From assembly GCA_964344235.1 (NCBI GenBank), contig CAYFMJ010000001.1, forward strand, positions 64,001-128,000: a stretch of 64,000 nucleotides of DNA. The letters run 5' to 3'. This stretch comes from an uncultured Methanosarcinales archaeon (GTDB taxonomy: Archaea; Nanobdellota; Nanobdellia; Woesearchaeales; GW2011-AR9). The notes under the pieces are model-generated. The model was not told the DNA's origin, did not search any database, and saw only the letters and a program-made list of their open reading frames with translations. Shown piece after piece: positions 1,893 to 48,234 of the stretch (positions within the stretch are counted from its first letter, which is position 1; the number at the start of each line of letters is the position of its first letter). The translations under genes were made by a program, and so were the position numbers.

Positions 1893-2024
1893 GGGTCAGT
1901 GGCCAAGTGGCTAAGACTAGTCTAGATTCTAGACTAGTAGTAAGCGGCCCCCTGCAGAGGGGCAGATCGAGGGAAGTACTTAGATTCTAAGTGCTCTCGA
2001 ATTCGAGTCCCTCCTGGCCCTCCA
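1893..2024 (+). tRNA. tRNA-Cys(GCA) with two introns (1916-1943 at 23/24; 1974-2001 at 53/54)
   Basis: Acceptor GGGTCAG/CTGGCCC, U73 discriminator, encoded CCA, anticodon arm GCCCC-CTGCAGA-GGGGC, T arm GAGGG-TTCGAGT-CCCTC. Each intron forms a 4-bp central helix with two 3-nt bulges. The spliced product is 76 nt. Confidence 0.92.
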
Positions 2025-2073
2025 TTTTCTAAATGTATTTAAACTGAAACCATTTGAAGTGTATTAAGAGAAA

Positions 2074-2484
2074 ATGAACAACAAAATTAAACTTGCCGGA
2101 TGTGTAATTCTAAAAGAAGATGCTATCCTTCTGCAACATAGAACAAAAAGAAATTGGTACGAATTACCAGGAGGAAAACTGGATGAAAACGAATCGCCAG
2201 AACAAACAGCAGTGAGAGAGCTTAAGGAAGAATTATGTTGTGATGTCGAGATTATTGAACAACTGGGAGTAAAAGACTTCGTGGAAGATGGTTTTACAAT
2301 GACTTATGTTTGGTTTCTTGCAAGAATTAAGGAAAATCAAGAGGTAAAAATTGGTGAACCAACTAAAATAAGCCATATTCATTATATCCCAATTAAAGAT
2401 CTCGAGTCTCATAACCTTTCACCCAACATGGAACGTCTATTAGAGGAGATTAAGCAAAAGAGAGTAAAATTATTTAAACCATAA
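2074..2484 (+). CDS. NUDIX hydrolase
   Basis: Nudix box GGKLDENESPEQTAVRELKEE. Confidence 0.9.
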   Translation: MNNKIKLAGCVILKEDAILLQHRTKRNWYELPGGKLDENESPEQTAVRELKEELCCDVEIIEQLGVKDFVEDGFTMTYVWFLARIKENQEVKIGEPTKISHIHYIPIKDLESHNLSPNMERLLEEIKQKRVKLFKP

Positions 2485-2499
2485 TTATAATCTCAGTAC

Positions 2500-3588
2500 A
2501 TGAATAAAAAAGCAATCTCCTCTTTAGAGCTAGCGGCACTTGTACAAGAATTGCAGTTTATTGTGAAAGGAAAGGTTTCGCAGATTTATCATCAGGAGAA
2601 GAAGGAGTTACTGCTACAATTACATGCACCAGGGCAGGGTAAACAATTGTTAAAGATAATTCCAGGGAAATTGTTGTGTTTAACGGACAGGAAAAAAGCA
2701 GGAAGTTTACGGCCAACAGGGTTTTGTATGCAGTTGCGGAAATATATCAATAATGCATTTATCAAAAGTATTCAGCAAAAAGATTCAGAACGAATTGTTG
2801 TATTTGAGTTGGAGAAAAAGGAGAAGTATTATTTGATTGTTGAATTGTTTTCCAAGGGGAATATTGTATTAGTTGATGGCAACTATAAGATTATTGCAAC
2901 GTTAACATGGCAGAAGTGGAAAGATAGGACTGTAAAGCCGGGAGAAGAATATCTCTTTCCAGAATCGCGAGTTAATTGGAAAACAATTAGTGAACCTATG
3001 TTTAAATCGTTGGTGGAAAAGAGTGAGAAGAAGAATCTGGCTACAGCTCTGGCAACAGAATTGGGCTTAGGTGGAGTGTATGCGGAGGATTTATGTTTAC
3101 GAGTGGGTGTTGATAAGAATATTGTGCCCACGGATGTGACGGCAGCACAGGCTGGGTTGTTGTTTCAGGGACTGCAAGAGATGTTAGTGTTGTTAGAAAA
3201 CCCAAAGGGGTGGATTTACGAGGAACAGGTAACGCCGTTTCCTCTTGCTGAAGAAAAAGATGAAAGGAGAACAAAGACGTATAATGAGGCGATCAATACA
3301 CTCAATCCGTTTCAAAAGAAGTCGCCGTATGAGCAAAAGATCGCTGCAATTGAGAAGACTATTGCGACACAGCAGGAAGCGATTGAGAGTTTGAAACTGA
3401 AGATTGAAGAGAATGGTAGGAAAGGAGAAAGGGTTTATGAGGAGTATGCTAACTTGCAGAAGTTGTTAGATATCGTGAAAGAGTTGCGGAAAACAGCGAC
3501 GTGGGAAGAGGTTAAAGGAGAGTTAACAAAAGAGAAGAAAATCAGTTCTGTTAATCTGAAGAAGAAAACTGTAATGATTGAGTTATGA
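2500..3588 (+). CDS. NFACT/RqcH (Rqc2/FbpA)-family protein, N-terminal domain and coiled coil only
   Basis: Typical NFACT-N motifs (F.MQLRKYI, ERIVVF, LIVELFSKGNIVLVD) and HhH-like LGLGGVYAED; ends before the RNA-binding domain. Confidence 0.8.
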   Translation: MNKKAISSLELAALVQELQFIVKGKVSQIYHQEKKELLLQLHAPGQGKQLLKIIPGKLLCLTDRKKAGSLRPTGFCMQLRKYINNAFIKSIQQKDSERIVVFELEKKEKYYLIVELFSKGNIVLVDGNYKIIATLTWQKWKDRTVKPGEEYLFPESRVNWKTISEPMFKSLVEKSEKKNLATALATELGLGGVYAEDLCLRVGVDKNIVPTDVTAAQAGLLFQGLQEMLVLLENPKGWIYEEQVTPFPLAEEKDERRTKTYNEAINTLNPFQKKSPYEQKIAAIEKTIATQQEAIESLKLKIEENGRKGERVYEEYANLQKLLDIVKELRKTATWEEVKGELTKEKKISSVNLKKKTVMIEL

Positions 3589-4284
3589 TTTTTGCATGTA
3601 ATATGCTCTTTTTTCTGAAGAGAATTTTTCTATCGCGTACCGTAGCATTGTGCGGGGCATTGTTTTATAGTGTTGTTGGAGGAACTGTTCTTCAAGAGGT
3701 TGATCTCTCTTTCCAATCTCACGTAACATCCAGCCAACTGCTTTATGGATGAGATCGTGTTTATCGTTGACTAAGATTTCGGCAATTTCTAGAGAATCTG
3801 TAAATTGGTTTTTGTGAATAAACCAGAATGTTGCTAAAATGGAGATACGGCGGTCCCAGAGGTTATCTGATTGAGCGAGGGCGTGGAGAAGTGACTTATC
3901 TTTGTCTAACAAATATCTGCCAATAACTTTATGTGCAGTTACATCAATTAAATCCCAGTTATTAGCGTATTGTTTGTGGTTAATGTAGAAATCAAATATT
4001 TCTTTTTGTTCTTCTGGTGTCGCTTTTTCAAATTTATATGTAAGAATGATGAATGAGGTAAGCCTTACTTCGTGGTATTTGCTTTTGATTGATTTCGAAA
4101 GCTCTGCAAGAGAAATGTTCACATATTTCTTAGCAATCTTTCGTTGTTCAGGGACTGTGATTCCGAGAAATACATCACCTTCACCATATTGCCCAGGGCC
4201 TGTTTTGAAGAATCGTTGTAGTACTTTTGCTTTCTCTGGGTTTTTGCGTTGCTGCAGTTCTGTGAGGAGTTGAGAGAGCATCAT
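3583..4284 (-). CDS. alkD: DNA alkylation repair protein (AlkD family)
   Basis: FFKTGPGQYGEGDVFLG, NNWDLID, KAVGWMLRE, MPRTMLRYAIE. Confidence 0.9.
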   Translation of the reverse strand: MMLSQLLTELQQRKNPEKAKVLQRFFKTGPGQYGEGDVFLGITVPEQRKIAKKYVNISLAELSKSIKSKYHEVRLTSFIILTYKFEKATPEEQKEIFDFYINHKQYANNWDLIDVTAHKVIGRYLLDKDKSLLHALAQSDNLWDRRISILATFWFIHKNQFTDSLEIAEILVNDKHDLIHKAVGWMLREIGKRDQPLEEQFLQQHYKTMPRTMLRYAIEKFSSEKRAYYMQKS

Positions 4285-5042
4285 TTCTTGTTTTTGGTAA
4301 AGCCTTCAAACGATCTGAGAACCTCCAATGGAACTGCAAAAATAATGGTGTTGCTTTGATCACTTGAAATATCATTAATACTTTGAAGAGTTCGTAGGTG
4401 AAGTGCCCCCGGTGCTTCTGCTAGCATTTCTGCGGCTTTGGCCATGTTTGTTGCAGCAACTTTCTCCCCATCTGCTTTGATGATTACTGCTCTTTTTTCT
4501 CTCTCGGACTCTGCCTCTTTAGCCATGATCCGTTTCATATCATTCGGTAATTCAATGTGTTTTAAGTCAACAGAATCAACAATAATTCCCCACGGGTCGG
4601 TTGCTTTGTCAACAAGCTGTTGGATCCTTTTTGATAATTGATCTCTTTTATTTAATAAGTCATCAAGTGGAACTTCCCCCACCACATCACGCATTGTTGT
4701 TTGTGATAATTGTGAAGTCGCAAAAAAGAAATCCTCCACTTCCAAGATGGCTTTCATTGCATCACCAATTTTAAAGTACAGTACTGCATTAACACGGACA
4801 GAAACGTTATCTTTTGTAATACAATCCTGATCTGGAACGTCAACAGCTTTAACCCGTAAGTCAACGCGCTGCCAGGATTGAATAATGGGAATGACTAACC
4901 GCAATCCTGGTTTTAGAATACCAGAGTATCTTCCCAGAGTGAATTTAACTCCCCGCTGGTATTCTTTAACAATTTTTAATCCAGATAAAACGAAAAAAAC
5001 AACGACTATGAGGGGGATATGTAGAAATGTAATGCTAACCAT
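4281..5042 (-). CDS. SPFH/band-7 (stomatin-like) membrane protein
   Basis: N-terminal TM helix, ITKDNVSVRVNAV, AESEREKRAVII, ALHLRTLQ. Start moved to ATG 5042. Confidence 0.9.
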   Translation of the reverse strand: MVSITFLHIPLIVVVFFVLSGLKIVKEYQRGVKFTLGRYSGILKPGLRLVIPIIQSWQRVDLRVKAVDVPDQDCITKDNVSVRVNAVLYFKIGDAMKAILEVEDFFFATSQLSQTTMRDVVGEVPLDDLLNKRDQLSKRIQQLVDKATDPWGIIVDSVDLKHIELPNDMKRIMAKEAESEREKRAVIIKADGEKVAATNMAKAAEMLAEAPGALHLRTLQSINDISSDQSNTIIFAVPLEVLRSFEGFTKNKK

Positions 5043-5149
5043 TCTTTTCACGTGGCAAATGAGGTATTTTAATGTTTCGATGATTGAGACCACAACCCAC
5101 TCGACAACTGCGAGTAGAGAATATAAATGAGTAATTCTGTGGGGAATCT

Positions 5150-5500
5150 ATGCAAGAGGTGTTAGCAAAATTGGAGCGGTCGAGGTTTCGCAGAAAGTTT
5201 CGTTTGTCTGAGAACGATATTGAGTATATTCAGCGAAAAACGGTTGAAGTGATGTATGATCATGCAGAGGGTTTTATCCGAGAGCGGTTACGGGAGTACC
5301 CTAGAAATGATGGAAAACAAACGCCGTGGAAAGGACATCCTGTGTTTATTGCGCAACATGCCACAGCCACTTGTTGCAGAGGATGCATGGCGAAGTGGCA
5401 TAACATTCCAAAGAATGTTGTGATGGATGAAGAACAAATTGCGTATGTAAGGGATATTATTATGACCTGGATGTGTGGGCAAATAGTAGAACATGATTGA
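5150..5500 (+). CDS. DUF4186-family protein
   Basis: SRFRRKFRL, NDGKQTPWKGHPVFIAQHATATCCRGC..KWH. Confidence 0.85.
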   Translation: MQEVLAKLERSRFRRKFRLSENDIEYIQRKTVEVMYDHAEGFIRERLREYPRNDGKQTPWKGHPVFIAQHATATCCRGCMAKWHNIPKNVVMDEEQIAYVRDIIMTWMCGQIVEHD

Positions 5501-6221
5501 GCAATCATTTGTATTTTTAGAGAGAATTGGGTTCAGGAAAGAGAGAGGTATTTGGCAACAGGGAATTAGGACATGGCAGGATTTCTTACTGTGTGAGAAC
5601 ATCCGAGGGGTTTCTGGGAAGAGAAAAGGCCATTATAATCGGAAGATACAGGAAGCGCAGCAGGCGTTGTGGCGGGGAGATTATTCTTATTTTATTGGAA
5701 AGTTGCCTCAAAAAGAGATGTGGCGGTTGTATCCGTTTGTTAAAGAAGAGTGTTGTTTTGTAGATATTGAGATTGATGGAAATGGAAGAATCGTGGTTGT
5801 GGGTGTTTCAAATTATTTTCAAACGAATTTCTTTGTGAGAGGGGTTAATTTGCAGAAAGAAATGGTTGAGAGGGAGCTGGGGAAGTATAAGGCAATAATT
5901 ACATTTAATGGCGGAGCGTTTGATGTGCCAAAACTGTGGAAGGAGTTAGGCGTTGACGTTGGGATGATACATATTGACTTAAAGCCGCTGTGTGTGAATA
6001 TGGAAATGAAAGGTGGTTTGAAAGAGGTAGAGAGACAGTTGCAGTTACGGAGACCATTTCATTTATATGGGAATCCTATTGATCTATGGAAAGCGTTTCA
6101 CGCTTCTGGTGATAGAGAATATTTGGAGTTGCTTCTCGATTATAATAGAGAGGATTGTGAAAATTTGAAGAACATTATGGAATTTGTCTATAAGGGGATG
6201 GTAAAAAATTATATAAACTGA
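5493..6221 (+). CDS. RNase H-like (YprB/RNase_H_2) exonuclease-domain protein
   Basis: DIE, TFNG..FDVP, HIDL, GGLKEVE, LLDYNREDC motifs. Confidence 0.8.
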   Translation: MIEQSFVFLERIGFRKERGIWQQGIRTWQDFLLCENIRGVSGKRKGHYNRKIQEAQQALWRGDYSYFIGKLPQKEMWRLYPFVKEECCFVDIEIDGNGRIVVVGVSNYFQTNFFVRGVNLQKEMVERELGKYKAIITFNGGAFDVPKLWKELGVDVGMIHIDLKPLCVNMEMKGGLKEVERQLQLRRPFHLYGNPIDLWKAFHASGDREYLELLLDYNREDCENLKNIMEFVYKGMVKNYIN

Positions 6222-6238
6222 TGATGTCTCTTTAGGTT

Positions 6239-7360
6239 ATGCCACAAAAAGTAACGCCTTGGGAAGTGCAAGGAAATATTGATTATAACAAGTTGATAAA
6301 AGAGTTTGGAGTTTCCAAGGTTGATAAAGCGTTGATGAAGAGAATTGAAAAGAAAGCCGGGTCACTTCATCATTTACTGCGTAGAGGAATTTTTTTTGCA
6401 CATAGAGATTTGAAGTTTGTTTTAGATGAGTATGATAAAGGTAACAAGTTCTTTTTGTATACCGGGAGAGCACCCTCCGGGCCAGTTCATTTGGGCCATC
6501 TTGTCCCGTGGATGTTTACAAAGTGGTTACAGGATGCGTTTAATGTAGAGTTGTATTTCCAATTTCCAGATGAAGAAAAGTTTCTGTTCAAGAAAGGGTT
6601 GAGCTGGGAGGATAGCCAGAAATATTTACATGAAAATATGTTAGATGTGATCGCACTTGGTTTTGACCCGAAGAAAACGCATTTTATTATTGACACAAAA
6701 CATGCGAACTTAATGTATCCTGAAGCGTTGAAAGTGGCGAAGGGAATAACATTCTCCACCGTCAAAGCGGCATTTGGGTTAAAGAATGAGAGTAATCTTG
6801 GACAAATTTTTTACACTGCTATGCAAGCTGTTCCTGCATTCTTACCGAGTGTGTTGAAGAAGAAGAAAATCCCGTGTTTAATTCCGCATGCCATTGACCA
6901 AGACCCACATTTTAGAGTGTCACGAGACGTGATTCCAAAGTTAGGGTATTACAAACCGGCATCAATTCAATGTCGTTTCTTGCCAGGGTTAGCTGGAATG
7001 GAAACTGACGGCAAGATGTCTTCCTCTATTGAGCACACCGCGATTTATACAACAGATGATGCAAAGACTGTTAAGAAGAAAATTAACAAATATGCGTTTT
7101 CTGGTGGTGGAGTAACGGTAGAGGAACATCGTAAAAAAGGCGGTAAACCGGAGATTGATGTAGCGTATCAATGGCTAACGTTTTTTGAAGAAGATGATAA
7201 GAAGCTAGAGAGAATCTACCGTGATTACAAATCAGGGAAATTGTTGAGTGGAGAATTGAAAGCAATTTTGATTGAGAAGTTGAATGCTTTCTTAGCGGAA
7301 CATCAAAAGAAACGGAAAAAAGCTGCAGCGAAAATTGACAAATTTATTCTGAAGGGGTAA
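6239..7360 (+). CDS. trpS: Tryptophanyl-tRNA synthetase (archaeal/eukaryal type)
   Basis: VTPWEV, LYTGRAPS..HLGH, AIDQDPHFR, KMSSS. Confidence 0.95.
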   Translation: MPQKVTPWEVQGNIDYNKLIKEFGVSKVDKALMKRIEKKAGSLHHLLRRGIFFAHRDLKFVLDEYDKGNKFFLYTGRAPSGPVHLGHLVPWMFTKWLQDAFNVELYFQFPDEEKFLFKKGLSWEDSQKYLHENMLDVIALGFDPKKTHFIIDTKHANLMYPEALKVAKGITFSTVKAAFGLKNESNLGQIFYTAMQAVPAFLPSVLKKKKIPCLIPHAIDQDPHFRVSRDVIPKLGYYKPASIQCRFLPGLAGMETDGKMSSSIEHTAIYTTDDAKTVKKKINKYAFSGGGVTVEEHRKKGGKPEIDVAYQWLTFFEEDDKKLERIYRDYKSGKLLSGELKAILIEKLNAFLAEHQKKRKKAAAKIDKFILKG

Positions 7361-7414
7361 GCAAACCTTTAAAAACATGCGAAATATTCTTTCCGTAAAG
7401 AGGTGATAGAGTTT

Positions 7415-7645
7415 ATGGCTCGTAGAAAAGGCACGAAGCGTTCTCCACGAAAACGGCCACCAAAGTGGCATGCTGTTCCATTAAAAGGAAGTTTCATGGT
7501 GTTGGCAATTGTTGGGTTCTTTGTGAGTGCGTATATGGTATACCCCGCAAATAAGAGTTACGGTGTTGCGTTTCTCTTAGTATTTACGGCGATGTTTATT
7601 GCTTCCCTGATTAGTATGACAAAAGCACCAGTGATTGGACAATAA
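7415..7645 (+). CDS. Small two-TM membrane protein with basic N-terminus
   Basis: GAGGTGA SD before ATG 7415; two hydrophobic helices. Confidence 0.7.
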   Translation: MARRKGTKRSPRKRPPKWHAVPLKGSFMVLAIVGFFVSAYMVYPANKSYGVAFLLVFTAMFIASLISMTKAPVIGQ

Positions 7646-7646
7646 A

Positions 7647-8087
7647 ATGGCAGAGAAACAATTACAGTGGACATTCCCGCAGAGGACTGTTAATTTTTTA
7701 CGGTTGGAGTTACTTGCAGTAGGCATTTTAGCAGTGTTAATTTTCATTGTAACATGGGTACAAGGAGAGAGTGCATTTTTCTCACTGATTATGGGCCTGC
7801 TGTTTGTTGGGATCTATTTTTTAGTATCGTTTGTTATTCAGCGGATCAGATCTGCAGAAGAGCAGTATAAGGCTAGTGGGACGCATCTTCAGGTAACAAG
7901 AAAAACTCGTTTTTCAACAAAGAAAGAGAAAGTGCATTTGAAGAAGATTCATCACCATAAATTAGATAGAGCATTTCTTGGTGGGTATGCATTAAGTCAT
8001 AAAGGCAAACACTTACTGTTTTTTAACAATACCAATGAGTTAGAGAAGTTTGATAAGCATGTTAAGAAACATGGAAAAAAGAAATAA
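7647..8087 (+). CDS. Two-TM membrane protein with soluble C-terminal domain
   Basis: ATG immediately after the upstream stop; two hydrophobic segments. Confidence 0.7.
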   Translation: MAEKQLQWTFPQRTVNFLRLELLAVGILAVLIFIVTWVQGESAFFSLIMGLLFVGIYFLVSFVIQRIRSAEEQYKASGTHLQVTRKTRFSTKKEKVHLKKIHHHKLDRAFLGGYALSHKGKHLLFFNNTNELEKFDKHVKKHGKKK

Positions 8088-8387
8088 TTAGTGTTTGAAT
8101 TTCTTGTCGAACTTCTCTTTTGCTTTGTTCTCTTTCCAGAATACTTCATGAGAAGCTCTTTTTTCAAATAAAGCAATTGCCAATTGCGTGGTTGTTTCTT
8201 CTGTGTTAATTGCTTTCTTAATAGCAAGACTTTTCGCATCTTCTAGGCATTCTTCGAGGATCCGGAAGTTGGTTCTGCGACATGCTGCTTCAACTTGTTT
8301 CTCTTCTTCTTCAGTGAGATACATTTCTTCCCAAATTGGATACGAAGAGTCCGGTTTTGTCCGGGGAAAGGTCTTTGAGAAAGGCAT
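8088..8387 (-). CDS. Hypothetical protein (helical)
   Basis: ORF from ATG 8387 (MPFSKTFP...WEE..L.EEEE) with protein-like composition. Confidence 0.65.
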   Translation of the reverse strand: MPFSKTFPRTKPDSSYPIWEEMYLTEEEEKQVEAACRRTNFRILEECLEDAKSLAIKKAINTEETTTQLAIALFEKRASHEVFWKENKAKEKFDKKFKH

Positions 8388-8418
8388 AATAGTTTGAGAG
8401 AAGGATTCAATATAAACG

Positions 8419-8679
8419 TTATGCTTTCTTTTTTTGTTTTTGCAGAAATTGAGAACCTTGTGCAGTGATAGATACAACATGGGCCGCCCGGCCGTTTGAA
8501 GGATGTTTCTTTATGGTCTTAATGGTTACTTGGCCAAAATCCTGCAGTTCTTGACAATTGGCTTTAATTGTTCTATAACCCGTATTAACTTTACGTTCAA
8601 GAATGGCGTACGTCGCGGGTTGCTCCTGTAAGTGATGGAGGATATCCTTTTTTATGTTGTATGAAGAACGCTTGGACAT
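8419..8679 (-). CDS. Small winged-helix DNA-binding protein
   Basis: ILHHL...TYAILERKVNTGYRTIKANCQELQDFGQV is a wHTH pattern with a wing. Confidence 0.65.
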   Translation of the reverse strand: MSKRSSYNIKKDILHHLQEQPATYAILERKVNTGYRTIKANCQELQDFGQVTIKTIKKHPSNGRAAHVVSITAQGSQFLQKQKKKA

Positions 8680-8734
8680 ACTGCAATATTGGTATAAAGC
8701 TTAAATATTACTACCGCACAAATTTGCAGTAAGC

Positions 8735-8863
8735 ATGGTGAAACTAATTGATTTGACGTGGTGGCTGGTCAAAAAGAAAATCTTGCCGCTTGACGTGTAT
8801 TTTTGGTTATATCAAAGGCAGTACGAGAAAGAATGGAGAAAAAGAAAGAGCGTAAAGGTGTAA
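8735..8863 (+). CDS. Possible 42-aa small protein
   Basis: Open frame MVKLIDLTWWLVKKKILPLDVYFWLYQRQYEKEWRKRKSVKV fills the intergenic gap; below ORF-track cutoff. Confidence 0.4.
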   Translation: MVKLIDLTWWLVKKKILPLDVYFWLYQRQYEKEWRKRKSVKV

Positions 8864-8894
8864 TCTTTTTATAGTGCGGCGCGATTAAAGGAAT

Positions 8895-9629
8895 ATGCCA
8901 TCATTTTGGAGACACGTTAACAGAGTACTTGAGGAGGCAGACATAGTGATCGAAGTATTAGATGCACGGTTACCGGATGAAACGAGAAATAAAGAGCTGG
9001 AGCAAAAAGTTGAGAAATTAGGCAAGAAGTTATTGTTTGTGGTGAATAAGTGTGACCTTGTTGCCAAGAGTAAAGTGGAAAAATTGCGAAGAGGGTTGAG
9101 GCCATCTGTGTTTATTTCAAGCACTGAAAAATTGGGAACGACGATTCTTAAGAAAAAAATATTGGAATTATCACGGGGGAAAGATGTCATAGTTGGTGTT
9201 GTCGGGTATCCAAATGTTGGAAAATCGTCTCTGATTAATGCATTATCTGGTAGGAAAGCTACACGAACTTCTTCTGAAAGTGGCCATACGAAAGGTATGC
9301 AGAAAGTTCGCGTTGATGGTAGGATTGTGATTCTTGATACCCCGGGAGTGTTTCCGTTTAAGGAAAAAGATAGAGCAAAACACAGTAAAATTGGTTCCAT
9401 TGATTATAGCAAAATAAGAGACCCAGAGGAGGCTGCACTACATTTGATTAACGATGAGTGGAATGTTATTGTGAAACATTATGAGGTTTCGGGAGAGGAT
9501 GCTGAAGAGATTTTAGAAGAAATTGGAAGAAAGTTTAACAAGTTACAGAAAGGAGGAGTTGTGAATATTGAGGTAGCAGCACGTTTTCTATTACGGGAAT
9601 GGCAGACAGGGAAAATACAACTAAAGTAG
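8895..9629 (+). CDS. Circularly permuted GTPase, RbgA/YlqF family
   Basis: Motif order G4 NKCD, G1 GYPNVGKS, G2 T, G3 DTPG. Confidence 0.9.
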   Translation: MPSFWRHVNRVLEEADIVIEVLDARLPDETRNKELEQKVEKLGKKLLFVVNKCDLVAKSKVEKLRRGLRPSVFISSTEKLGTTILKKKILELSRGKDVIVGVVGYPNVGKSSLINALSGRKATRTSSESGHTKGMQKVRVDGRIVILDTPGVFPFKEKDRAKHSKIGSIDYSKIRDPEEAALHLINDEWNVIVKHYEVSGEDAEEILEEIGRKFNKLQKGGVVNIEVAARFLLREWQTGKIQLK

Positions 9630-9688
9630 CAAAACTATTTTAAACAATTCTATCTTTCTTTGAAGTAATAAACTTTGAGGTGATTTTC

Positions 9689-13778: not shown

Positions 13779-13781
13779 ATT

Positions 13782-26590: not shown

Positions 26591-26701
26591 AGAGTGATTT
26601 AGGAGGTGGTTTTTATAAGATTTGTGTTTGTAATCATTGTGGAGTGGTTTCAATTTTATTTTAGTTACTTTTATAAAATAATCATAGTTGAAATGTTCTA
26701 T

Positions 26702-26894
26702 GCGGACGTGCCGGAGAACTCACTTCGTTCGTGCTCCAACAAACGAAGTTTGTCCGGAGTGGTCAAACGGGACGGTTCGTTTGGCATTACGGTGCCAAGT
26801 GAGTCCATACTCAAATGCTAAAACCATTTCCTGATTTAGCGTAGAGCTATCCGTTGGTTTAGTACCTACGCAGGTTCGAACCCTGCCGTCCGCA
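26702..26894 (+). tRNA. tRNA-Leu(CAA) with three introns (26717-26759 at 15/16; 26776-26808 at 30/31; 26816-26848 at 37/38)
   Basis: Acceptor GCGGACG/CGTCCGC, A73, long variable arm, T arm GCAGG-TTCGAAC-CCTGC. The spliced 84-nt product has anticodon arm ACGGA-CTCAAAA-TCCGT. BHB central helices are CCGG/CCGG, GGAC/GTCC and CTC/GAG (relaxed). Confidence 0.88.
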
Positions 26895-27019: not shown

Positions 27020-27775
27020 ATGAATACAAAAATAAATCCGGAGGTTGCAGAGATCCTAGGAGCCTTTATAGGAGATGGGTGGCTTGAAAGCTCATTAGGT
27101 GCGATCTACATTACGGGTGATAAAACTGAGGATAAAGAGTATTATGATGCATTTTTAGGCCCTTTGTTTAGTGAACACTTTTCTCCCGTCACACCACAGC
27201 AATTCCCGTACTGGAATGTATATGGAATTGGTTCTTCTAAGAAAATAGCAATTGAGAAGTGCTTGAGTCTCGGTTTTCAACCAGGAAGTAAAGCACTCGT
27301 TGCAAAAATGCCAGACTTTATTATGAAAACACAAAATGTTGAGGTTAAGAAAGCTATTCTAAGGGGTATCTTTGACGCTGATGGATGTATATGGTTTGAT
27401 AGATCAAGAGCCAAGACATCTAACGAATGGAAGAGAAAATATCATTATATTCCAATTATAGAAATTTCCTCTTGTTCACAAAATTTATTACAACAAATGA
27501 AAGAAATCCTAACTACTTTTGGAATAGAATCACTTATTATACTAAAGAGTAAAGCGGGAAGAAAATTCAATAGGAATCGACATGATTCTTTCTCTTTAAA
27601 AATAAGGAAAATTGACCATGTTAAAAAATGGTTCAGTATTATTGGTTCTAGTAATTCAAGACACCAAACGAGGTATGCTGTTTGGAAAAAATTCGGCTTT
27701 CTTCCGCCAAGGACAAATATTAACCAAAGAAAGCAAATTTTAGCGGGGAAATTAGATCCTAAGAGTTTCTATTAA
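27020..27775 (+). CDS. Free-standing double-motif LAGLIDADG endonuclease
   Basis: VAEILGAFIGDGW and ILRGIFDADGC. Confidence 0.87.
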   Translation: MNTKINPEVAEILGAFIGDGWLESSLGAIYITGDKTEDKEYYDAFLGPLFSEHFSPVTPQQFPYWNVYGIGSSKKIAIEKCLSLGFQPGSKALVAKMPDFIMKTQNVEVKKAILRGIFDADGCIWFDRSRAKTSNEWKRKYHYIPIIEISSCSQNLLQQMKEILTTFGIESLIILKSKAGRKFNRNRHDSFSLKIRKIDHVKKWFSIIGSSNSRHQTRYAVWKKFGFLPPRTNINQRKQILAGKLDPKSFY

Positions 27776-40792: not shown

Positions 40793-40847
40793 ATATAATC
40801 ACCTATGCTATTTATGGAAGAATGGAGGGTTGGGAGATATTTAAAGA

Positions 40848-41711
40848 TTACTCAACACAAGACGCTAGATTTTGGTTTATTCGTGATTTGTTGAGTTTCT
40901 CTCCAATGAAAACGAGAGTGGATGGTTTATTTTCTGTTTCTTCTAGTTCCCATCTACCGACTACGTAGTTAAGAAGAAAGGATTGGTTGTTTATGGTTAT
41001 ATACCCTTTAACACGGAAAATAGAATTGGGTAGGGAGTTAAGGAACTTGGTAAGTTTCGCTTTGTTGAGAGGTTGTGGTTGAATAAGGTGGGTTTCCATG
41101 TGATGATGGTGTTCTGATTTTGTGATGTGTTGATGAGTCGCTTCAATGCCAAGGAGAATGTTGAGGTCTATCTTGCAGTGATCTGTTTCAATAATTGGTG
41201 CTTTTAGGTTAATGGTTTTGATGATTTTTTTCACTTGCTCTGTTTCTTCTCTTTTAAGTAAATCTATTTTGTTTAGCAGTAGAAGATCTGCGGTTTCAAT
41301 CTGGATCTTGGCAGAACCCTTAACGTCTGGAAAGCGGTTTGTGATATCTGCATCAACAACGGTAATGACGGCGTCAAGCGTGATGTTAGGGATGTCAGAG
41401 ATGTCAACAACTAAATTGTCTGCTTCCGCTATACCTGTTGTTTCGATGATAATTGTGTCAGGGGAGTAGAGTTCAATGATTTCCTGCAGTCCTGCTTCTA
41501 ATTCTCCTTGTAAAGAGCAGCATACACAACCTTCAAGTAGTTCTTTCACTGCAATAGTATCATGTTTAATCACTTCTGTATCGATGCCAACTTCCCCAAA
41601 CTCGTTCATAAGAACAGCGATTTTTTTGTCTGTGTGTTTGAGAATGTGTTTTAGTAGAGTCGTTTTACCAGCACCGAGGTAGCCCGAGAGGAGGATTAAA
41701 GGGGTTTTCAT
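40848..41711 (-). CDS. COG0523/CobW-family GTPase metallochaperone
   Basis: GYLGAGKTT, NEFGE, GCVCC, ETTGIA, NKID, His-rich linker. Confidence 0.9.
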   Translation of the reverse strand: MKTPLILLSGYLGAGKTTLLKHILKHTDKKIAVLMNEFGEVGIDTEVIKHDTIAVKELLEGCVCCSLQGELEAGLQEIIELYSPDTIIIETTGIAEADNLVVDISDIPNITLDAVITVVDADITNRFPDVKGSAKIQIETADLLLLNKIDLLKREETEQVKKIIKTINLKAPIIETDHCKIDLNILLGIEATHQHITKSEHHHHMETHLIQPQPLNKAKLTKFLNSLPNSIFRVKGYITINNQSFLLNYVVGRWELEETENKPSTLVFIGEKLNKSRINQNLASCVE

Positions 41712-42124
41712 TGTTGTTGTAATAGTAGTTCTTTAATTTTTGTACTTTTATGTTTATGTGGTTTGTAGGGTTTTGCTCTCAAAACTTTCGGGTAAAGATG
41801 AAGAGGGAGAAGTTTCTCAGAAAGTTGTTTCTCTGTGATAGGATGATCATATCCTAAGAGAATGATGTCTGGTTTCTTTTCTTCAATTATTTTGAAATGG
41901 TTGTCGTGATGTCCTAACGTGGCTTCATCCACTATTTGCAGGCTTTTGACAAGTTTCAGTCGCTCCTGCTCGTCAAAGATGGTTTCTTTTTGTTGGTCTG
42001 TTTTTGTTTTATCTCTTGCTACTACTACAACAAGTTTGTCAGCGTGTTGTTTCGCTTGCTGGAAGTAGTCGAGGTGTCCGAGGTGGAGTACATCGAATGT
42101 TCCAAAACACATTACGCTAGTCAT
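41708..42124 (-). CDS. ribL: FAD synthetase / cytidylyltransferase family
   Basis: GTFDVLHLGH, VVVVARD, PDIILLGYD. Confidence 0.8.
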   Translation of the reverse strand: MTSVMCFGTFDVLHLGHLDYFQQAKQHADKLVVVVARDKTKTDQQKETIFDEQERLKLVKSLQIVDEATLGHHDNHFKIIEEKKPDIILLGYDHPITEKQLSEKLLPLHLYPKVLRAKPYKPHKHKSTKIKELLLQQQ

Positions 42125-42695
42125 TTTGAGCTATAAACCGCAGTAATAACGCTACTGTACGGTCCTCTTTAATCTGTTTGTTCAAACACATTTGTTCAAC
42201 TTCATCAAACGTTTTCCACGTTGGTTCAATGATCTCGCCATGATCGAGATGTTGGCCTTTTGGATGCTCTTCAAATTCTTCAATACGAAAGCAGAATAAA
42301 TCCCAACGCATCGTTGCACCACAAGTAGATGTGTGGATATGTTTTACTTTCTTTGCAACGATTCCTGCTTCCTCTAAACATTCGGTAATGATTCTCTTTT
42401 CAGCAGCCTGTTCAATGTATTCTTGACCTTTCTCTAATGCTTCCTCATATTCGTCAAGTGTTTCGAATACTTTTCCACCAGGAATGCGATAATCATACCC
42501 CTTCTGGGCTGGCCGGTATTCATGAATCATAAGAATTTTGTTGTCTTTTACGATAAGAGCTCTTGTTCCAGGAGAACGATACGCCCATTCGTATTCTAGT
42601 GTTCGTGTCGGTTCTTTCATTAATTGTCTGCGAACACCTACTATTTTACCAGAATACACTTCTTTAGGTTCTTCTAAAGGAATTGGTTTAGTCAT
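42117..42695 (-). CDS. NUDIX hydrolase (ADP-ribose pyrophosphatase-like)
   Basis: IHEYR, PGGK ... ECLEEAG with an insertion in the Nudix box. Confidence 0.75.
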   Translation of the reverse strand: MTKPIPLEEPKEVYSGKIVGVRRQLMKEPTRTLEYEWAYRSPGTRALIVKDNKILMIHEYRPAQKGYDYRIPGGKVFETLDEYEEALEKGQEYIEQAAEKRIITECLEEAGIVAKKVKHIHTSTCGATMRWDLFCFRIEEFEEHPKGQHLDHGEIIEPTWKTFDEVEQMCLNKQIKEDRTVALLLRFIAQND

Positions 42696-42697
42696 TT

Positions 42698-42946
42698 TTA
42701 TTCTCCTCTTATCCTGTAGGCGTCAACAACTTCGCCGTTACGGAAGACAACGACCCCTCTGTCTGCAACCCCCTCGTATAACAATACTCTATCTTCTTCA
42801 ACAACGTTTAGAAGACCAGGAATATTAACAGTTTTTGTTCTCTTGCCAACTTGTAAATCGATTGTGGTGGAGTAAGGCCAATTTTCACAACCGATAACAG
42901 TTCCATCAATTGTGTGTAATGCTATCCCGTGTCCTGCAAATGTCAT
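42698..42946 (-). CDS. Hypothetical protein
   Basis: Overlaps neighbours in operon-like fashion. Confidence 0.5.
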   Translation of the reverse strand: MTFAGHGIALHTIDGTVIGCENWPYSTTIDLQVGKRTKTVNIPGLLNVVEEDRVLLYEGVADRGVVVFRNGEVVDAYRIRGE

Positions 42947-44997
42947 TTTTCTATTAATTCTGCCTCGCCAATTATTAATTTTCCGGAATGTTTTGAGTCC
43001 ATAACTTTCTGTGTTCTTACAAGTTTAATTTTCTTGTGAAATAATGGGGCGTCTAATACCAGCGACTCAAATTCTCCGCCTTCCCCAGCAATGTTTAGAA
43101 ATTGTTTTGCTTGGAGTTCTTGGAGAATTTCTTCATTAATTTCTTTACCTAACCACGATTCATCCAAACCATCAGCTGCAACTGCTGTAATGATAACGTG
43201 GAAACCGCGTTGTATTACCTCTTTCATATGCTGCTCTTGGGATTTATGCCACAGGGGGGAGAATATTTTTAATCCTAAGTTGTCACAAATCTTCTCTATT
43301 CTATCTCTCTGATATGTTGAGAATAAAGCGCCGGAGACGACACCTTCAATTTTGTGTTGTTCTTTTGCAATTTTTAATGCTGCTTCTAAATCTGCCAATT
43401 CTTTCTCTTTCTCACCTTTCGTAGGTACCTGAACGAGAGGAAGGCCCATTGCCTCTGCTTGGAGTTGAACTAGCTCTGTACCTGCAGATTGAAACATGTA
43501 AGAATATTCATTCTCCGATTTCAGATTGATTAGGCAGGTTAATTCATAATTTTGCTGATGCATAATGTGTGCAGCGGAGAGTGAATCTTTACCTGAGGAG
43601 AAGAGAACACCAAGTTTCACGTTATGGGTAGGATAGAATTGTCGGAGGTATTGTGATTTTGATTGTTTGTGTTGTTTTGCTAATTTGCCAAGTGCATTGT
43701 CTATTCTTGAACCGTATTGCGCTGCGGTTTTTTTACGATATGAGAATTGTTCTAGAATCCCTGAGTTGAGTGCGATGTCTCGTAGAATAATTTTTGTTGC
43801 TCCCCCATTTATTTTGTGTTGTGTTGGAATTTTAAGTGCGTAGTTGATGAGAGAGTGGTCTAAGAATGGTAGACGTAACTCTAGGTTATTATCCATCGTA
43901 AGAACATCGTCCCGGTAAAGGTCGCGTTCGTACATCTTTCGTAAGCCGGAAACACATTCCTGGTTAATGTTAGAGGATTTTTTATGACGCTCATAGCCGG
44001 CAAAGATTTCTTCACTTCCTAAGCCAGAGAAGATTACTTTACAGCCATCTTCTTTCGCTAGTTCACTCGCTAAGTAGAATGTTAACGCTACACCGACTTT
44101 CACAACGTTAGAGTCTTCGATTAAAGGAACTATTTTCTGGAGGTATTGGGGGAGGTCTTCCTGTTTTATGGTTTTGATTTTAAGATCAAGATTAAGTTCT
44201 TTCGCTACGTTTTGCGCTGCTGCTAAATCGGAAGGTGTGGCGGTGTCTGTGTCGAGAACAGCTGTGTAACAGGTGAAGTCATAGCCTTTTGTTTTGAAGT
44301 AATGTGCTAAGAACGTGGAGTCTATCCCGCCGGAGAAGAGAAGGCCGAATTTTTTATTTGGGATGCGTTTCTGAATTGCATTGTGTAGTAATTGTTTTGT
44401 TGTTTGTTTTATGTTTTCATAATTATCTGTGTGTTCTGGTGTGTATTCAAAGAATGGTCTTTTTGTGATTGTCAGCTTTTTGTTTTTGACATCGTATGTG
44501 AGGATGCTGCGAGGGTTTAATTCGACAATATCAATGTAACCGAGTTTCTCTAATGCTTTCTTTTCTGATGCAAAGGCGAAAGAGTCGTTGTTGTATGCGT
44601 ACCATAATGGTTTCACGCCAAGAATATCTCGAGCGAGTGTGATTGAGTTATTATTGTAATAGGCAAACGCAAAGACGCCATCAAGTTCTTCTATTTTTTC
44701 TGTATTAAATTTGTCAAGAAAATGAAGAAGAAGTTCGGCATCGTTTTGTGTGTTTAGGTTGTATTTTGTATTCATTTCTTCCCAGTTATAGATTTCGCAG
44801 TTTGCAGTGAGGGTTCCTCCATTCTGAATTGGTTGAGGGATATGATTAATAACCGCATGCAAGGTATGGCCAAGAACGCCGTTTGGTAATTGAGTGATTT
44901 GAGAACCATCTTTTCCCCGATTTTTGAGGATGTCAAGAGCGGCAGCTACATGTTCCTTTGCTTGTACATGGTTAAAGACGCCAACGATGCCACACAT
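42943..44997 (-). CDS. Asparagine-synthetase-B-like protein fused to diphthine--ammonia ligase (Dph6)
   Basis: MCGIVG Ntn start, RDILGVKPL, LFSGGIDS, SGLGSEEIFAGY, ELRLPFLD; then FSSGKDS, SYMFQ, GALFSTYQRDR, GEGGEFESLVLDAP. Confidence 0.88.
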   Translation of the reverse strand: MCGIVGVFNHVQAKEHVAAALDILKNRGKDGSQITQLPNGVLGHTLHAVINHIPQPIQNGGTLTANCEIYNWEEMNTKYNLNTQNDAELLLHFLDKFNTEKIEELDGVFAFAYYNNNSITLARDILGVKPLWYAYNNDSFAFASEKKALEKLGYIDIVELNPRSILTYDVKNKKLTITKRPFFEYTPEHTDNYENIKQTTKQLLHNAIQKRIPNKKFGLLFSGGIDSTFLAHYFKTKGYDFTCYTAVLDTDTATPSDLAAAQNVAKELNLDLKIKTIKQEDLPQYLQKIVPLIEDSNVVKVGVALTFYLASELAKEDGCKVIFSGLGSEEIFAGYERHKKSSNINQECVSGLRKMYERDLYRDDVLTMDNNLELRLPFLDHSLINYALKIPTQHKINGGATKIILRDIALNSGILEQFSYRKKTAAQYGSRIDNALGKLAKQHKQSKSQYLRQFYPTHNVKLGVLFSSGKDSLSAAHIMHQQNYELTCLINLKSENEYSYMFQSAGTELVQLQAEAMGLPLVQVPTKGEKEKELADLEAALKIAKEQHKIEGVVSGALFSTYQRDRIEKICDNLGLKIFSPLWHKSQEQHMKEVIQRGFHVIITAVAADGLDESWLGKEINEEILQELQAKQFLNIAGEGGEFESLVLDAPLFHKKIKLVRTQKVMDSKHSGKLIIGEAELIEK

Positions 44998-45112
44998 AAG
45001 TGGTTAATTTGGTAGTATTTTTATAAAATTATGGGGTTGTTGCAAAGGAAGAAGCACAATCTATAGGTCCAATGACACATAAGGATATAAGTTAAATTGA
45101 TATCCAGAAAAT

Positions 45113-45343
45113 ATGAGTGAAAGACTTGAAGAAACAGCATTTAGAATGTTTATGGAACAAAGAGGCACTACTTTTTCTGGCGACCTGAAAGATACGACCC
45201 TGTATCAAGGGTTTGTTGCTGGGTTTTATGGGCGAGCAGAAGACAGAAAAAGAGAAGTTCTGAAACAAACTGCTGAAAGTGCAGAGTATGTAATGGCATA
45301 TTTCGTTGGAGAGATAGAAGGTCGAAATCACAGGGGTTGTTAG
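45113..45343 (+). CDS. Small hypothetical protein
   Basis: 76-aa ORF filling the gap between two minus-strand genes. Confidence 0.45.
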   Translation: MSERLEETAFRMFMEQRGTTFSGDLKDTTLYQGFVAGFYGRAEDRKREVLKQTAESAEYVMAYFVGEIEGRNHRGC

Positions 45344-45346
45344 AAC

Positions 45347-46444
45347 TTAATCAAGATGAATCTCTAACACGTCTTTATCTTTCAATGCATGTTTCAACAT
45401 AACTCGCTGTGCAGGATGCTTTGCTGACTTGCCCCATACTCTTGCAAACTTGAAACGTTTGACAAAATCTTTATGTGTTTTATTGCAAACATCTCGAATC
45501 GTAGAATTACGAGGGATGATTAACGGCTCTTTCATGTCTGCTTCTTTACGAGGTTCTTTCATGTAAATACGGATGAAGTCAAGTTTTTTGAAGATCTTTT
45601 CACGTAATTCTTTAATTCCTAAATCCTCATGTGTGCTAATTACTAAATCTGCGTTCAATTCTTTTTTGACTTTTGCAACTTGACCTGCTGTTGCTAAATC
45701 TGCTTTGGTGATACAAGTAATAGCAGGGACGTATTTCTTTTGACTGCCTAAGCAGTCAATGAAGTCATCAATGTCGATGGGGGAGCGAATAAGCACTTCT
45801 GCATTAACAATCTTAAATTGTTGCATGACTTTCCTGATGGTTTCATCGTCTGTACCAATTTCAACGGTTTTACCAATATGGATTCCGCCCTGTCCTTTTT
45901 TCTTAATGTACACTTCTGGTTTAGTTTTATTCACCCGTATATTCGATTCCCATACTTCCCGCAGAATTGCTTGGTAATGTTCAGGAGTTGTGACGTCGAC
46001 TACTATTAACACTAAATCGGCGTTTTGGATAACGGCGAGCACTTCTTTTCCTCTTCCTCTACCGGATGCGGCACCAGAAACTATTCCGGGAACGTCAAGA
46101 ATTTGAATTTTTGCTTGTTTATATTCCATCATTCCCGGAACAACGGAAAGAGTGGTGAATGCATAGGCACCGACCTCTGAGTCAGCTCCTGTTAATTTGT
46201 TAAGGAGGGTTGATTTTCCTGCTGAAGGAAATCCGAGCAATAAGACGGTTCCATCACCCGATTTTCGGACAGAATAGCCGTGGTCTGATCTTCCTGTTTT
46301 TTTAGAAACACGAGATTCTTGTTTTTGCTTCAGTTGGGCAATTTTCGCTTTAAGAATTCCAATATGGCCTTGCGTTGCTTTGTTATATTTGGTTTTTTTT
46401 ATCTCGTCCTGGATTTCTTTGATTTGTTTATTATAATCGACCAT
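45347..46444 (-). CDS. DRG-family (OBG superfamily) GTPase with TGS domain
   Basis: NKATQGHIG, GFPSAGKST, YAFTT, DVPG, TKAD, C-terminal TGS. Confidence 0.92.
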   Translation of the reverse strand: MVDYNKQIKEIQDEIKKTKYNKATQGHIGILKAKIAQLKQKQESRVSKKTGRSDHGYSVRKSGDGTVLLLGFPSAGKSTLLNKLTGADSEVGAYAFTTLSVVPGMMEYKQAKIQILDVPGIVSGAASGRGRGKEVLAVIQNADLVLIVVDVTTPEHYQAILREVWESNIRVNKTKPEVYIKKKGQGGIHIGKTVEIGTDDETIRKVMQQFKIVNAEVLIRSPIDIDDFIDCLGSQKKYVPAITCITKADLATAGQVAKVKKELNADLVISTHEDLGIKELREKIFKKLDFIRIYMKEPRKEADMKEPLIIPRNSTIRDVCNKTHKDFVKRFKFARVWGKSAKHPAQRVMLKHALKDKDVLEIHLD

Positions 46445-46499
46445 GCACTATTACTTTCCTCAGCGCTTTTTAAGGTTTCTGAGATTTGCGAGGGAATTA

Positions 46500-46603
46500 A
46501 GTCAGTTTCGGCGAGTGGGGCACGGCGCGATTATGGTGTCTTATTCGAACATTTTATTCTTGGACACCATGCGCCCCATTTGGCGCCACTCGCCTTCTCG
46601 ACT
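46500..46603. ncRNA. Candidate structured RNA of unknown class
   Basis: GC-rich intergenic element with nested helices GGCGAGTGG/CCACTCGCC, GGCGC/GCGCC and ATGGTGTC/GACACCAT, plus terminal AGTC/GACT. Confidence 0.5.
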
Positions 46604-46657
46604 CAATAAAAAAGTGTTTTCGTAATGTTTATAAAATCGTGAGCAGAATAGAAGAGA

Positions 46658-47209
46658 ATGGTCAATGCGACAGCAGTCGGAGGGGTTGTAGAGACAGCGC
46701 AGTCCTACTTTTACTCAATTATCATTGGAATTGTGATTCTGTTAATTGGTTTTGGCGCGGGAGTATTAGCGAAAAGAATCGTCCACAGGGTTCTGCGAGA
46801 AATTGAGTTGAATAAGATTATGAGTAAAGTGGGAATGCGTCATAATTTAGAGCGAACGATTAGTATTGTTATCTCGTATCTTATTTACATCGTAACGATT
46901 ATCATCTTTTTGAAGCAGTTTGGTGTGATTCCCATCTACATTGTGTATCTCATTGTGGGAGCAATTCTCATGTTAATGGCATTAACATTTATTGTAGGTT
47001 TGAAAGATGTTATCCCGAATTTTGTGGCATGGGTATTGTTGCAGAGAAAGGGTAAGATTAAGGAAGGGTATCATGTTAACGTTAGGGAGATTTATGGCGT
47101 TGTAGAAAGGGTTGGTTTTTTAGAAACAGAAATTAAGACAGATAATAATGATATTTTATATGTGCCAAATTCGTTATTTTTGAAATCGAAGTTTAGAGTA
47201 AGGAAGTGA
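46658..47209 (+). CDS. MscS-family mechanosensitive channel (short form)
   Basis: TM helices, KDVIPNFVA, GVVERVGFLETEIKT, VPNS. Confidence 0.8.
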   Translation: MVNATAVGGVVETAQSYFYSIIIGIVILLIGFGAGVLAKRIVHRVLREIELNKIMSKVGMRHNLERTISIVISYLIYIVTIIIFLKQFGVIPIYIVYLIVGAILMLMALTFIVGLKDVIPNFVAWVLLQRKGKIKEGYHVNVREIYGVVERVGFLETEIKTDNNDILYVPNSLFLKSKFRVRK

Positions 47210-47449
47210 TTACTTCGCACTCTCTAACATGCTGATAACATCCCACACTTGTGTTCTATTATAAGAAGGCATGTCGATGTTGTTTAAATCTTCTAATTCC
47301 ATCAACGCTTTCTCGATAGGAAGTTCAACATCACTGGAAAGAATTGTAATAACACTGGCTGCTTTTTCTTTAAATCGTTTGCAACAGTCTGGTTCTTCTT
47401 TTAATTCGCTGAGGTACTCAATGACTTCAGTCACTTGTTGTTTGTTCAT
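47210..47449 (-). CDS. UPF0147-family protein
   Basis: EKAL..LEDL....MPSYNRTQVWDVISMLES. Confidence 0.8.
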   Translation of the reverse strand: MNKQQVTEVIEYLSELKEEPDCCKRFKEKAASVITILSSDVELPIEKALMELEDLNNIDMPSYNRTQVWDVISMLESAK

Positions 47450-47771
47450 CGTTGTTCTCTTCCTGTAATTCTTTCATAACTTCTTTCTGTAAGGATTCCA
47501 TTTGCTCTTTGAGTTTATCCTCTTGTGAAGCGAAGTTTTTCAAATGGATCTCTGCAACGTCTTTCTTTTCCTGGAGATCTTTTGAAAGGTCTTCTTTAGA
47601 AGCGGCAATCATCATTTTGCCAAGAATCTTATAACTTTTATCGGTTGTTTTTATTTCAGTCAATGCTGAGTTTAATTCTGTTAATTGTGATTCAATTTGT
47701 TGTTTTTGCATAGAGATGGAGTGAAGGTTTTGCTGCAGGAGTTGTAGTTGGTTTACCTTATCTGATGTCAT
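47427..47771 (-). CDS. pfdB: Prefoldin subunit beta
   Basis: LQLLQQNL..I..QKQQIE, YKILGKMMI, coiled coil. Confidence 0.88.
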   Translation of the reverse strand: MTSDKVNQLQLLQQNLHSISMQKQQIESQLTELNSALTEIKTTDKSYKILGKMMIAASKEDLSKDLQEKKDVAEIHLKNFASQEDKLKEQMESLQKEVMKELQEENNDEQTTSD

Positions 47772-47780
47772 TTTTAAGAA

Positions 47781-47915
47781 TTAACGTGCTTTTACTTTGT
47801 TAACGGTTCTCCGATCTTTATAGAGGATCTTACCGCCACAGTAGGGGCATCTAATTTTAGTACGAGTGTACTCGTCCTCTACTTTCTTTCCACAGTCAAA
47901 ACAAACGTAATACAT
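47781..47915 (-). CDS. rpo12: RNA polymerase subunit P (Rpo12)
   Basis: Manual translation MYYVCFDCGKKVEDEYTRTKIRCPYCGGKILYKDRRTVNKVKAR; below ORF-track cutoff. Confidence 0.93.
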   Translation of the reverse strand: MYYVCFDCGKKVEDEYTRTKIRCPYCGGKILYKDRRTVNKVKAR

Positions 47916-47916
47916 T

Positions 47917-48114
47917 TTATTTGGGTTTATAGGCTTTGCCAGCAAATTTAATGCCGGTTTTTTTACAGATCCAGATACCTAAGGAAAGTCGTTTTACTGT
48001 TGGTTTATTACAGAACGGGCTTTTGTACTTTTTTCGCTGCTGTGCTTCAATAGCGCCGAATTTCTTCTTAGGTTTTCGCCCGTACCGAGCTCCGAATCGT
48101 TTTGTTGATTTCAT
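47917..48114 (-). CDS. rpl37ae: Ribosomal protein L37ae (eL43)
   Basis: RFGARYG, VKRLSLGIW.C.K.G.KFAGKAY. Confidence 0.93.
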   Translation of the reverse strand: MKSTKRFGARYGRKPKKKFGAIEAQQRKKYKSPFCNKPTVKRLSLGIWICKKTGIKFAGKAYKPK

Positions 48115-48127
48115 GTTGTTAGTATAA

Positions 48128-48234
48128 TGGTGGGGCCGCCCAGATTTGAACTGGGGTCTAAGCGTCCCAAACGCCCAATGCTAGATTGCTCCTAGCGACT
48201 TGTGTCTTGCTAGACCAAGCTACACTACGGCCCC
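48128..48234 (-). tRNA. tRNA-Pro(TGG) with a D-loop intron (48186-48214, 29 nt, position 19/20)
   Basis: Acceptor GGGGCCG/CGGCCCC, encoded ACCA, anticodon loop TTTGGGA, T arm CCCAG-TTCAAAT-CTGGG; BHB central helix GCTT/GAGC with 3-nt bulges. Confidence 0.92.

Follow-up and report, generated by a model that had tools for sequence, protein, structure and literature searches.

Densely interrupted tRNA genes in a Woesearchaeota genome and their apparent intron turnover between related genera

Why should every tRNA gene that can be found in a 64-kb stretch of archaeal DNA be interrupted, and mostly at sites other than the canonical position 37/38? The stretch, hereafter the window, covers positions 64001-128000 of contig C1 in the genome we call G000, an assembly of 1.19 Mb in 37 contigs that is 96% complete. 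A sequence-only reading of the window had placed six introns in three tRNA genes, for cysteine, leucine and proline, and had taken this density as a sign of active, genome-wide intron gain in the lineage. We analysed these genes by hand and with our own splice-aware solver, which moves along the DNA with a cloverleaf grammar and is allowed to skip candidate bulge-helix-bulge (BHB) introns. Both approaches recovered the six introns, 28-43 nucleotides (nt) long, exactly at the positions claimed, and the claimed layout was the top solver solution for each gene. All three are very probably functional tRNA genes in an archaeon of the Woesearchaeota (DPANN) and are interrupted by short introns of the BHB type that are spliced by proteins.

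The tRNA-Cys(GCA) gene lies on the plus strand at 1893-2020 and is followed by discriminator U and an encoded CCA. Exon 1 (tRNA positions 1-23; 1893..1915) is separated by a 28-nt intron at 23/24 (1916..1943) from exon 2 (24-53, with the anticodon; 1944..1973), and a second 28-nt intron at 53/54 (1974..2001) precedes exon 3 (54-72), which with the discriminator and the CCA occupies 2002..2024. The tRNA-Leu(CAA) gene, also on the plus strand, extends over 26702-26893 and has four exons: 26702..26716 (positions 1-15), 26760..26775 (16-30), a 7-nt micro-exon bearing the anticodon at 26809..26815 (31-37), and 26849..26894 (38-72), which includes the long variable arm and discriminator A. Its introns are inserted at 15/16 (43 nt, 26717..26759), 30/31 (33 nt, 26776..26808) and the canonical 37/38 (33 nt, 26816..26848). 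TATA-like boxes can be read directly on the same strand 24-33 nt upstream of tRNA-Cys (1860..1869) and 21-32 nt upstream of tRNA-Leu (26670..26681), and they may serve as promoters. On the minus strand, tRNA-Pro(UGG) runs from 48234 to 48132 and then continues with A and CCA; a single 29-nt intron at 19/20 (48186..48214) divides exon 1 (1-19; 48215..48234) from exon 2 (20-72, discriminator A and encoded CCA; 48128..48185). The exons of all three genes are colinear and lie on one strand each, so these are not split or permuted tRNA genes.

Each intron's motif was measured with the other introns of the same gene removed. In five of the six introns, all 4 bp of the central helix form and 3-nt bulges flank it on both sides. 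The exception, Leu 37/38, is a relaxed motif in which 3 of the 4 central pairs form and the anticodon stem serves as the outer helix. Cys 23/24 alone is a strict hBHBh' motif, with an outer helix of 2 bp and an inner helix of 9 bp. The other four (Cys 53/54, Leu 15/16, Leu 30/31 and Pro 19/20) belong to the HBh' class, with an outer helix of 0-1 bp; that of Cys 53/54 is absent altogether. Inner helices range from 2 to 10 bp (9 bp in Cys 53/54, 10 bp in Leu 30/31, 5 bp in Pro 19/20). When the precursors were folded as single strands, the acceptor stems closed and hairpins formed in the introns (z-score -5.6 for the Cys precursor, -3.7 for Pro). Full cloverleaves with the conserved nucleotides were obtained only once the six inserts were removed. 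The resulting solver scores of 46-53 exceed anything in a control in which the same first-pass pipeline was applied to the reversed, non-complemented genome; that control yielded no false gene and a top score of 39.8. With the same pipeline, real genes scored at least 46 and noise in the real genome at most 38.4.

Standard finders are blind to these genes because the genes are present but broken by introns. Neither ARAGORN in bacterial mode without introns nor Rfam at gathering and E-value thresholds reported any tRNA in the window. When introns were allowed, ARAGORN miscalled several genes, for example Pro as Ala. A strict BHB scan overlooked the relaxed introns, and an anticodon-arm search for Cys with 3 mismatches returned mostly noise from coding regions. 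A T-arm seed scan of the window revealed no further tRNA gene, interrupted or uninterrupted.

The solver was then run genome-wide, seeded from whole or split T-arms, with relaxed motifs where needed. ARAGORN finds five intronless tRNAs in the whole genome (Thr-CGU, Arg-UCU, Phe-GAA, Ala-UGC and Leu-UAG) and Rfam finds nine. The solver census comprises 38 tRNA genes that represent all 20 amino acids, and 33 of them are interrupted: nine by one intron, 13 by two and 11 by three. The density suspected by the sequence-only reading thus extends across the genome, and since 33 of 38 genes are interrupted, its worry that most other tRNA genes might be intronless does not apply. Finding all three genes of the window interrupted is therefore expected (probability about 0.65) and no fluke; the window is an ordinary sample of the genome.

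The blindness of standard finders, and an assembly in 37 contigs, might instead suggest a chance sample, or genes that have decayed into pseudogenes or arisen through misassembly. Across the genome, however, the census reveals the same condition, and the Cys, Leu-CAA and Pro genes are the only ones of their kinds found in it. Comparison with relatives revealed highly conserved exons, and introns at the same positions in genomes of other genera that were assembled independently. We consider an explanation by chance, decay or misassembly extremely improbable.

The census contains 68 introns, 13-57 nt long, with 23 at 37/38 and 45 at non-canonical sites. Non-canonical introns are concentrated in the T-loop at 58-60 (13 genes) and at 15/16 (six genes). 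By our criteria, their motifs divide into 22 strict, 20 HBh' and 26 that are relaxed in other ways. An AA end, in which the two A residues open the 3' bulge, is found in 27 of the 45 non-canonical introns versus 5 of the 23 canonical ones.

Shared insertion sites of this kind could be a product of copy-and-paste transposition of introns between tRNA genes, and the two 28-nt Cys introns do have a 9-nt loop-region motif in common. When all 68 introns were aligned all against all, however, cross-gene local alignment scores did not exceed 12 and fell inside the shuffled null (top scores 15, 12 and 12). The sole identical pair belongs to paralogous genes. In the 13 genes with an intron at 58-60, the 3' end of the intron pairs with UUCR of the loop, and the common 3' ends are therefore required by the T-loop itself. 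Clustering, which the sequence-only reading had proposed as a way to detect movement between genes, thus gave no sequence families above the null. Copy-and-paste transposition is therefore unsupported, and we regard it as very unlikely.

The distribution of introns was compared across related genomes, each denoted by a G-number; these represent related genera and are not independent samples. As a rough inverse proxy of gene disruption, we used the number of Rfam-detectable tRNAs per genome. Within the family, 24 other genera range from 3 to 32 with a median of about 11.5; 16 other families of the order range from 9 to 41. Intron load is thus order-wide, yet very uneven between genera.

The window genes themselves differ between genera. 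tRNA-Cys, with two introns in G000, is uninterrupted in G007, G009, G013, G017 and G020, and the intronless gene of G017 has an acceptor stem identical to that of G000. Because Cys is intronless in these five relatives, one of them with the same acceptor stem, its two introns would most simply be recent gains. G008, G013 and G014 have the Pro 19/20 intron (22-42 nt), G002, G018 and G030 lack it, and extra tRNA-Pro introns at 37/38, 56/57 or 58/59 are found in single genera. For Leu-CAA, the 37/38 intron occurs in most genera and the 30/31 intron in G008 and G018, whereas the gene of G012 is intronless. The 15/16 intron was seen in G000 only and is missing from the orthologs of 10 relatives; private introns at 56/57, around 20/21 and at 21/22 were found in other genera. 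Since the same tRNA carries different introns in different genera, introns appear to be gained and lost continually on a recent time scale. The proposal of active gain in the lineage thus holds as regards genome-wide density and intron sets that differ between genera for Cys, Leu and Pro, but what these comparisons indicate is gain and loss.

One purpose suggested for such introns is defence. Randau and Soll in 2008 reportedly proposed that tRNA introns protect tRNA genes against integration, and the sequence-only reading had likewise supposed that fragmentation shields tRNA genes from use as attachment sites by integrating viruses and plasmids. Integrating elements do seem to be around, as the genome has 11 tyrosine-recombinase genes, and with one weak exception no integrase gene adjoins any of the 33 interrupted tRNAs. 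However, none of the five intronless tRNAs has an integrase neighbour either. The exception, an integrase-like open reading frame (ORF) that matches at 25 bits, below the cut-off, is the only one next to any tRNA gene; it lies 146 nt downstream of the 3' end of a two-intron tRNA-Glu, and a search of its contig for an att-like repeat was negative. The integrase and tRNA counts are too small for a test. Protection thus found no support here, and we think it unlikely.

Unexpectedly, genes of the homing-endonuclease type lie beside tRNA genes. Two free-standing, two-motif LAGLIDADG ORFs are encoded in the window. One, of 262 aa, is at 986..1774 on the minus strand, divergent from tRNA-Cys and 119 nt away from it; the other, of 251 aa, is at 27020..27775 on the plus strand, 127 nt downstream of tRNA-Leu. 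Acidic residues are kept in the two motifs of both ORFs. A homolog of the tRNA-Leu-adjacent ORF, 55% identical, is found at the same place in G008. Eight of the nine free-standing LAGLIDADG ORFs in G000 are within 127 nt of a tRNA gene, against a background of 4.6% of open frames of at least 150 codons (binomial P = 1.8e-10). The association recurs in 12 other genera, where a tRNA gene was located within 1.5 kb of 9 of 12 free-standing LAGLIDADG loci versus 0 of 17 intein loci (Fisher P about 2e-5).

At one locus of G033 (contig C1, L098, 526-1527), a 28-nt copy of the tRNA-Pro 5' end is followed by a promoter-like AT stretch and then by a LAGLIDADG ORF, the stop codon of which overlaps the start of a complete, intron-bearing tRNA-Pro. 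This arrangement resembles what would be left behind if an endonuclease gene had inserted at a tRNA gene. A further LAGLIDADG ORF in G000 (C1:63538-64233) reaches the window start (window 1-233), 101 nt downstream of the intronless tRNA-Arg(UCU) gene (C1:63364-63437); it has an in-frame TAA in one alignment and may be decaying.

These observations raise the possibility that free-standing LAGLIDADG endonucleases home to tRNA genes, and that introns persist or spread either by disrupting the recognition site, which would confer immunity, or by co-conversion with the adjacent endonuclease gene, as in collaborative homing. Besides the adjacency in G000 and its relatives, the retained motifs and the G033 arrangement, the endonuclease next to Cys is found only in G000, where Cys has two introns, and the one next to Leu-CAA is found again in G008, the only further genome in which Leu-CAA has three introns. 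The association, however, is with tRNA genes and is not established for introns. tRNA genes adjacent to an endonuclease are no more often interrupted than others (7 of 8 versus 33 of 38; 7 of 10 in relatives), and tRNA-Pro is one of 26 interrupted genes that lack an endonuclease neighbour. One endonuclease family lies beside the intronless tRNA-Arg in G000 and about 350-600 nt from the intronless tRNA-Cys in G013, and there is no known cleavage site. Co-occurrence of intron and endonuclease thus fits at the Cys and Leu-CAA loci and not for the Arg/G013 family. A homing link to the introns is possible but, on balance, doubtful.

Splicing of so many introns would require a suitable endonuclease and ligase. 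Single genes were found for each: EndA, of 200 aa (C13:3053-3652; PF01974 and PF02778), and RtcB (C6:21402-22718). The nearest public EndA proteins are named Candidatus Woesearchaeota or Nanoarchaeota. Relatives with a match have one EndA match each, apart from two fragments in G036; two genomes gave none. EndA of G000 has none of the hallmarks of two broad-specificity types, the alpha-beta heterotetramer with the crenarchaeal loop and the three-unit epsilon2 form: there is no second subunit gene, no three-unit fusion and no such inserted loop. Residues 29-200 align without gaps to the M. jannaschii enzyme (1a79), which has strict specificity, and in pairwise alignments extra residues around the catalytic histidine number 6 in N. 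equitans, 5 in ARMAN-2 and none in G000. Kaneta et al. (2018, PMC5829648) attribute the broad specificity of DPANN alpha4 EndA to the insertion of a loop, L3; the insertion site near the catalytic histidine in N. equitans and ARMAN-2 probably corresponds to L3 as described there. The same study reports more tRNA disruption and incomplete tRNA sets in DPANN genomes, including one from Woesearchaeota. EndA of G000 also has a lysine-rich N-terminal tail of 28 residues, and similar tails precede the core in many relatives. Tail length showed no evident relation to the detectable tRNA count across relatives; the tail reconstruction is partly flawed and we make no claim from it.

These components suggest how the genes may be expressed and how introns might accumulate. 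The pre-tRNA would fold to place every splice site within a 3-nt bulge flanking a 4-bp helix, the single alpha-type EndA would cut at the bulges, and RtcB would then join the exons. A splicing enzyme that tolerates relaxed motifs could render new insertions nearly neutral, and such insertions might accumulate in small, drift-prone symbiont genomes. A combined account, in which tRNA genes of Woesearchaeales are the targets of free-standing LAGLIDADG endonucleases, the intron load arises as a side effect (introns disrupt the target sites or are carried along with the adjacent endonuclease gene in break repair) and an alpha EndA that has a lysine-rich tail in place of the known loops supplies relaxed splicing, is speculative and somewhat less probable to us than the homing link by itself. 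If it is true, archaeal protein-spliced tRNA introns would have a route of spread at the DNA level.

Several points weigh against reading these loci as functional tRNA genes with dense introns that turn over between genera. Excision at exactly these sites is a prediction from pairing patterns. About 26 of the splice registers are weak by our own criteria and perhaps slightly misplaced. The census may be incomplete, as 38 genes were found and several isoacceptors are absent. The direction of change, gain versus loss, comes from parsimony over few genera and is unrooted. By published rules, a loop-less EndA should not cut relaxed motifs, which make up about two thirds of its predicted substrates in G000. 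Finally, six of the 38 census genes are odd Ser-like genes with non-Ser anticodons.

These six genes (C12:11488-11585(+), C4:46177-46275(+), C2:7915-8020(-), C7:12253-12356(+), C2:170289-170419(-) and C6:25403-25515(+)) are of class II, with a long variable arm, discriminator G and an intron at 58-60. In the 7-nt anticodon loops, which are not interrupted, the anticodon reads GAU in five genes and UAA in one, and the anticodon stems covary from copy to copy. Normal Ser-GCU, Ser-UGA, Ser-GGA and Ile-GAU genes are found elsewhere in G000, and a search of 40 relatives gave no homologs of the odd genes. A degenerate, same-sense partial self-copy, extending from the D-arm to the variable arm, lies about 60-110 nt upstream of four of them (C2:8020, C7:12253, C12:11488 and C4:46177), and the TATA box of each of these four genes sits between the partial copy and the gene.

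Other unusual tRNA-related loci were noted in G000. Two neighbouring genes, C1:270527-270639 and C1:270809-270903, both read as His(GUG), and each encodes G-1 and C73. The start of the first is overlapped by a LAGLIDADG ORF, and the second is atypical in how its D-loop begins and contains the loop CUGUGAC. A tRNA-Ile with anticodon UAU is located at C15:15904-16042, and an elongator CAU gene of the Ile2 type was not found in the census. Two identical 26-nt tRNA-like 5' ends with the same 10-nt upstream flank occur at C3:24119 and C3:23074 (-), and a further sequence resembling a tRNA 5' half occurs at C1:385938 (+). These three fragments came from a 5'-end seed search, and no 3' part can be recognised close to any of them; each may be a decayed copy or one half of a split gene. 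Adjacent ORFs of 259 and 376 aa at C9:25033-28104 (L002), 286-2196 (-), both match the class II Asp/Lys/Asn tRNA-synthetase core. At 41043-41120 (+) in the window, Rfam gives a weak resemblance to a C/D-box snoRNA (RF00201, 22.8 bits, E = 3.5) that does not reach the gathering score.

The practical consequence is that standard annotation reports 5 to 9 tRNAs where about 40 must be present. For Woesearchaeota and other DPANN archaea, gene finding, estimates of completeness and inferences on codon reading are therefore systematically wrong without a splice-aware search. A lineage with intron turnover between genera is also a good natural system for studying the origin of archaeal tRNA introns. 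The LAGLIDADG-tRNA adjacency and the apparent mismatch between EndA and its substrates are two leads that make this question testable.

In kind, the system is already known. Multi-intron tRNA genes, relaxed motifs and lineage-specific gains occur in Thermoproteales, ARMAN and Asgard archaea, and DPANN archaea were flagged in 2018; G000 is a very dense case. What extends the known picture is the apparent mismatch between a loop-less EndA and its substrates, together with a strong, replicated adjacency of endonuclease and tRNA genes. Free-standing homing endonucleases beside their target are known from phage T4, where SegB lies in a tRNA gene cluster, and from collaborative homing at cyanophage psbA. 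As in those systems, the endonuclease gene in G000 is outside any intron and beside a conserved gene that may have an endonuclease-less intron. The differences are another enzyme family and host, protein-spliced BHB introns rather than group I introns, and a tRNA-gene cleavage that is putative here.

One close parallel in tRNA introns is found in Thermoproteales. There too, most genes are affected, with up to three short BHB introns per gene, mostly at non-canonical sites that include the D-arm and T-loop, and many of them HBh'. About 28% of Thermoproteales introns fall into sequence families spanning isotypes, which was read as transposition (Sugahara 2008, Fujishima 2010, via bioRxiv 10.64898/2026.10.13.758758), whereas G000 has no cross-isotype intron families. 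Thermoproteales EndA is an (alpha-beta)2 enzyme with the crenarchaeal loop; G000 has a single alpha gene without the loop. The DPANN set of Kaneta et al. (2018, PMC5829648) comes from the same superphylum, but compared with the alpha4 EndA of that study, EndA of G000 has no insertion relative to M. jannaschii and has a lysine-rich tail. The present analysis adds to that study a full census and intron turnover between genera. Asgard tRNA introns resemble those of G000 in averaging about two per gene, in repeated lineage-specific gains, in having no intron families and in being missed in large part by standard finders. The Asgard study saw no association of mobile elements with gains, whereas in G000 the free-standing LAGLIDADG genes are strongly associated with tRNA genes.

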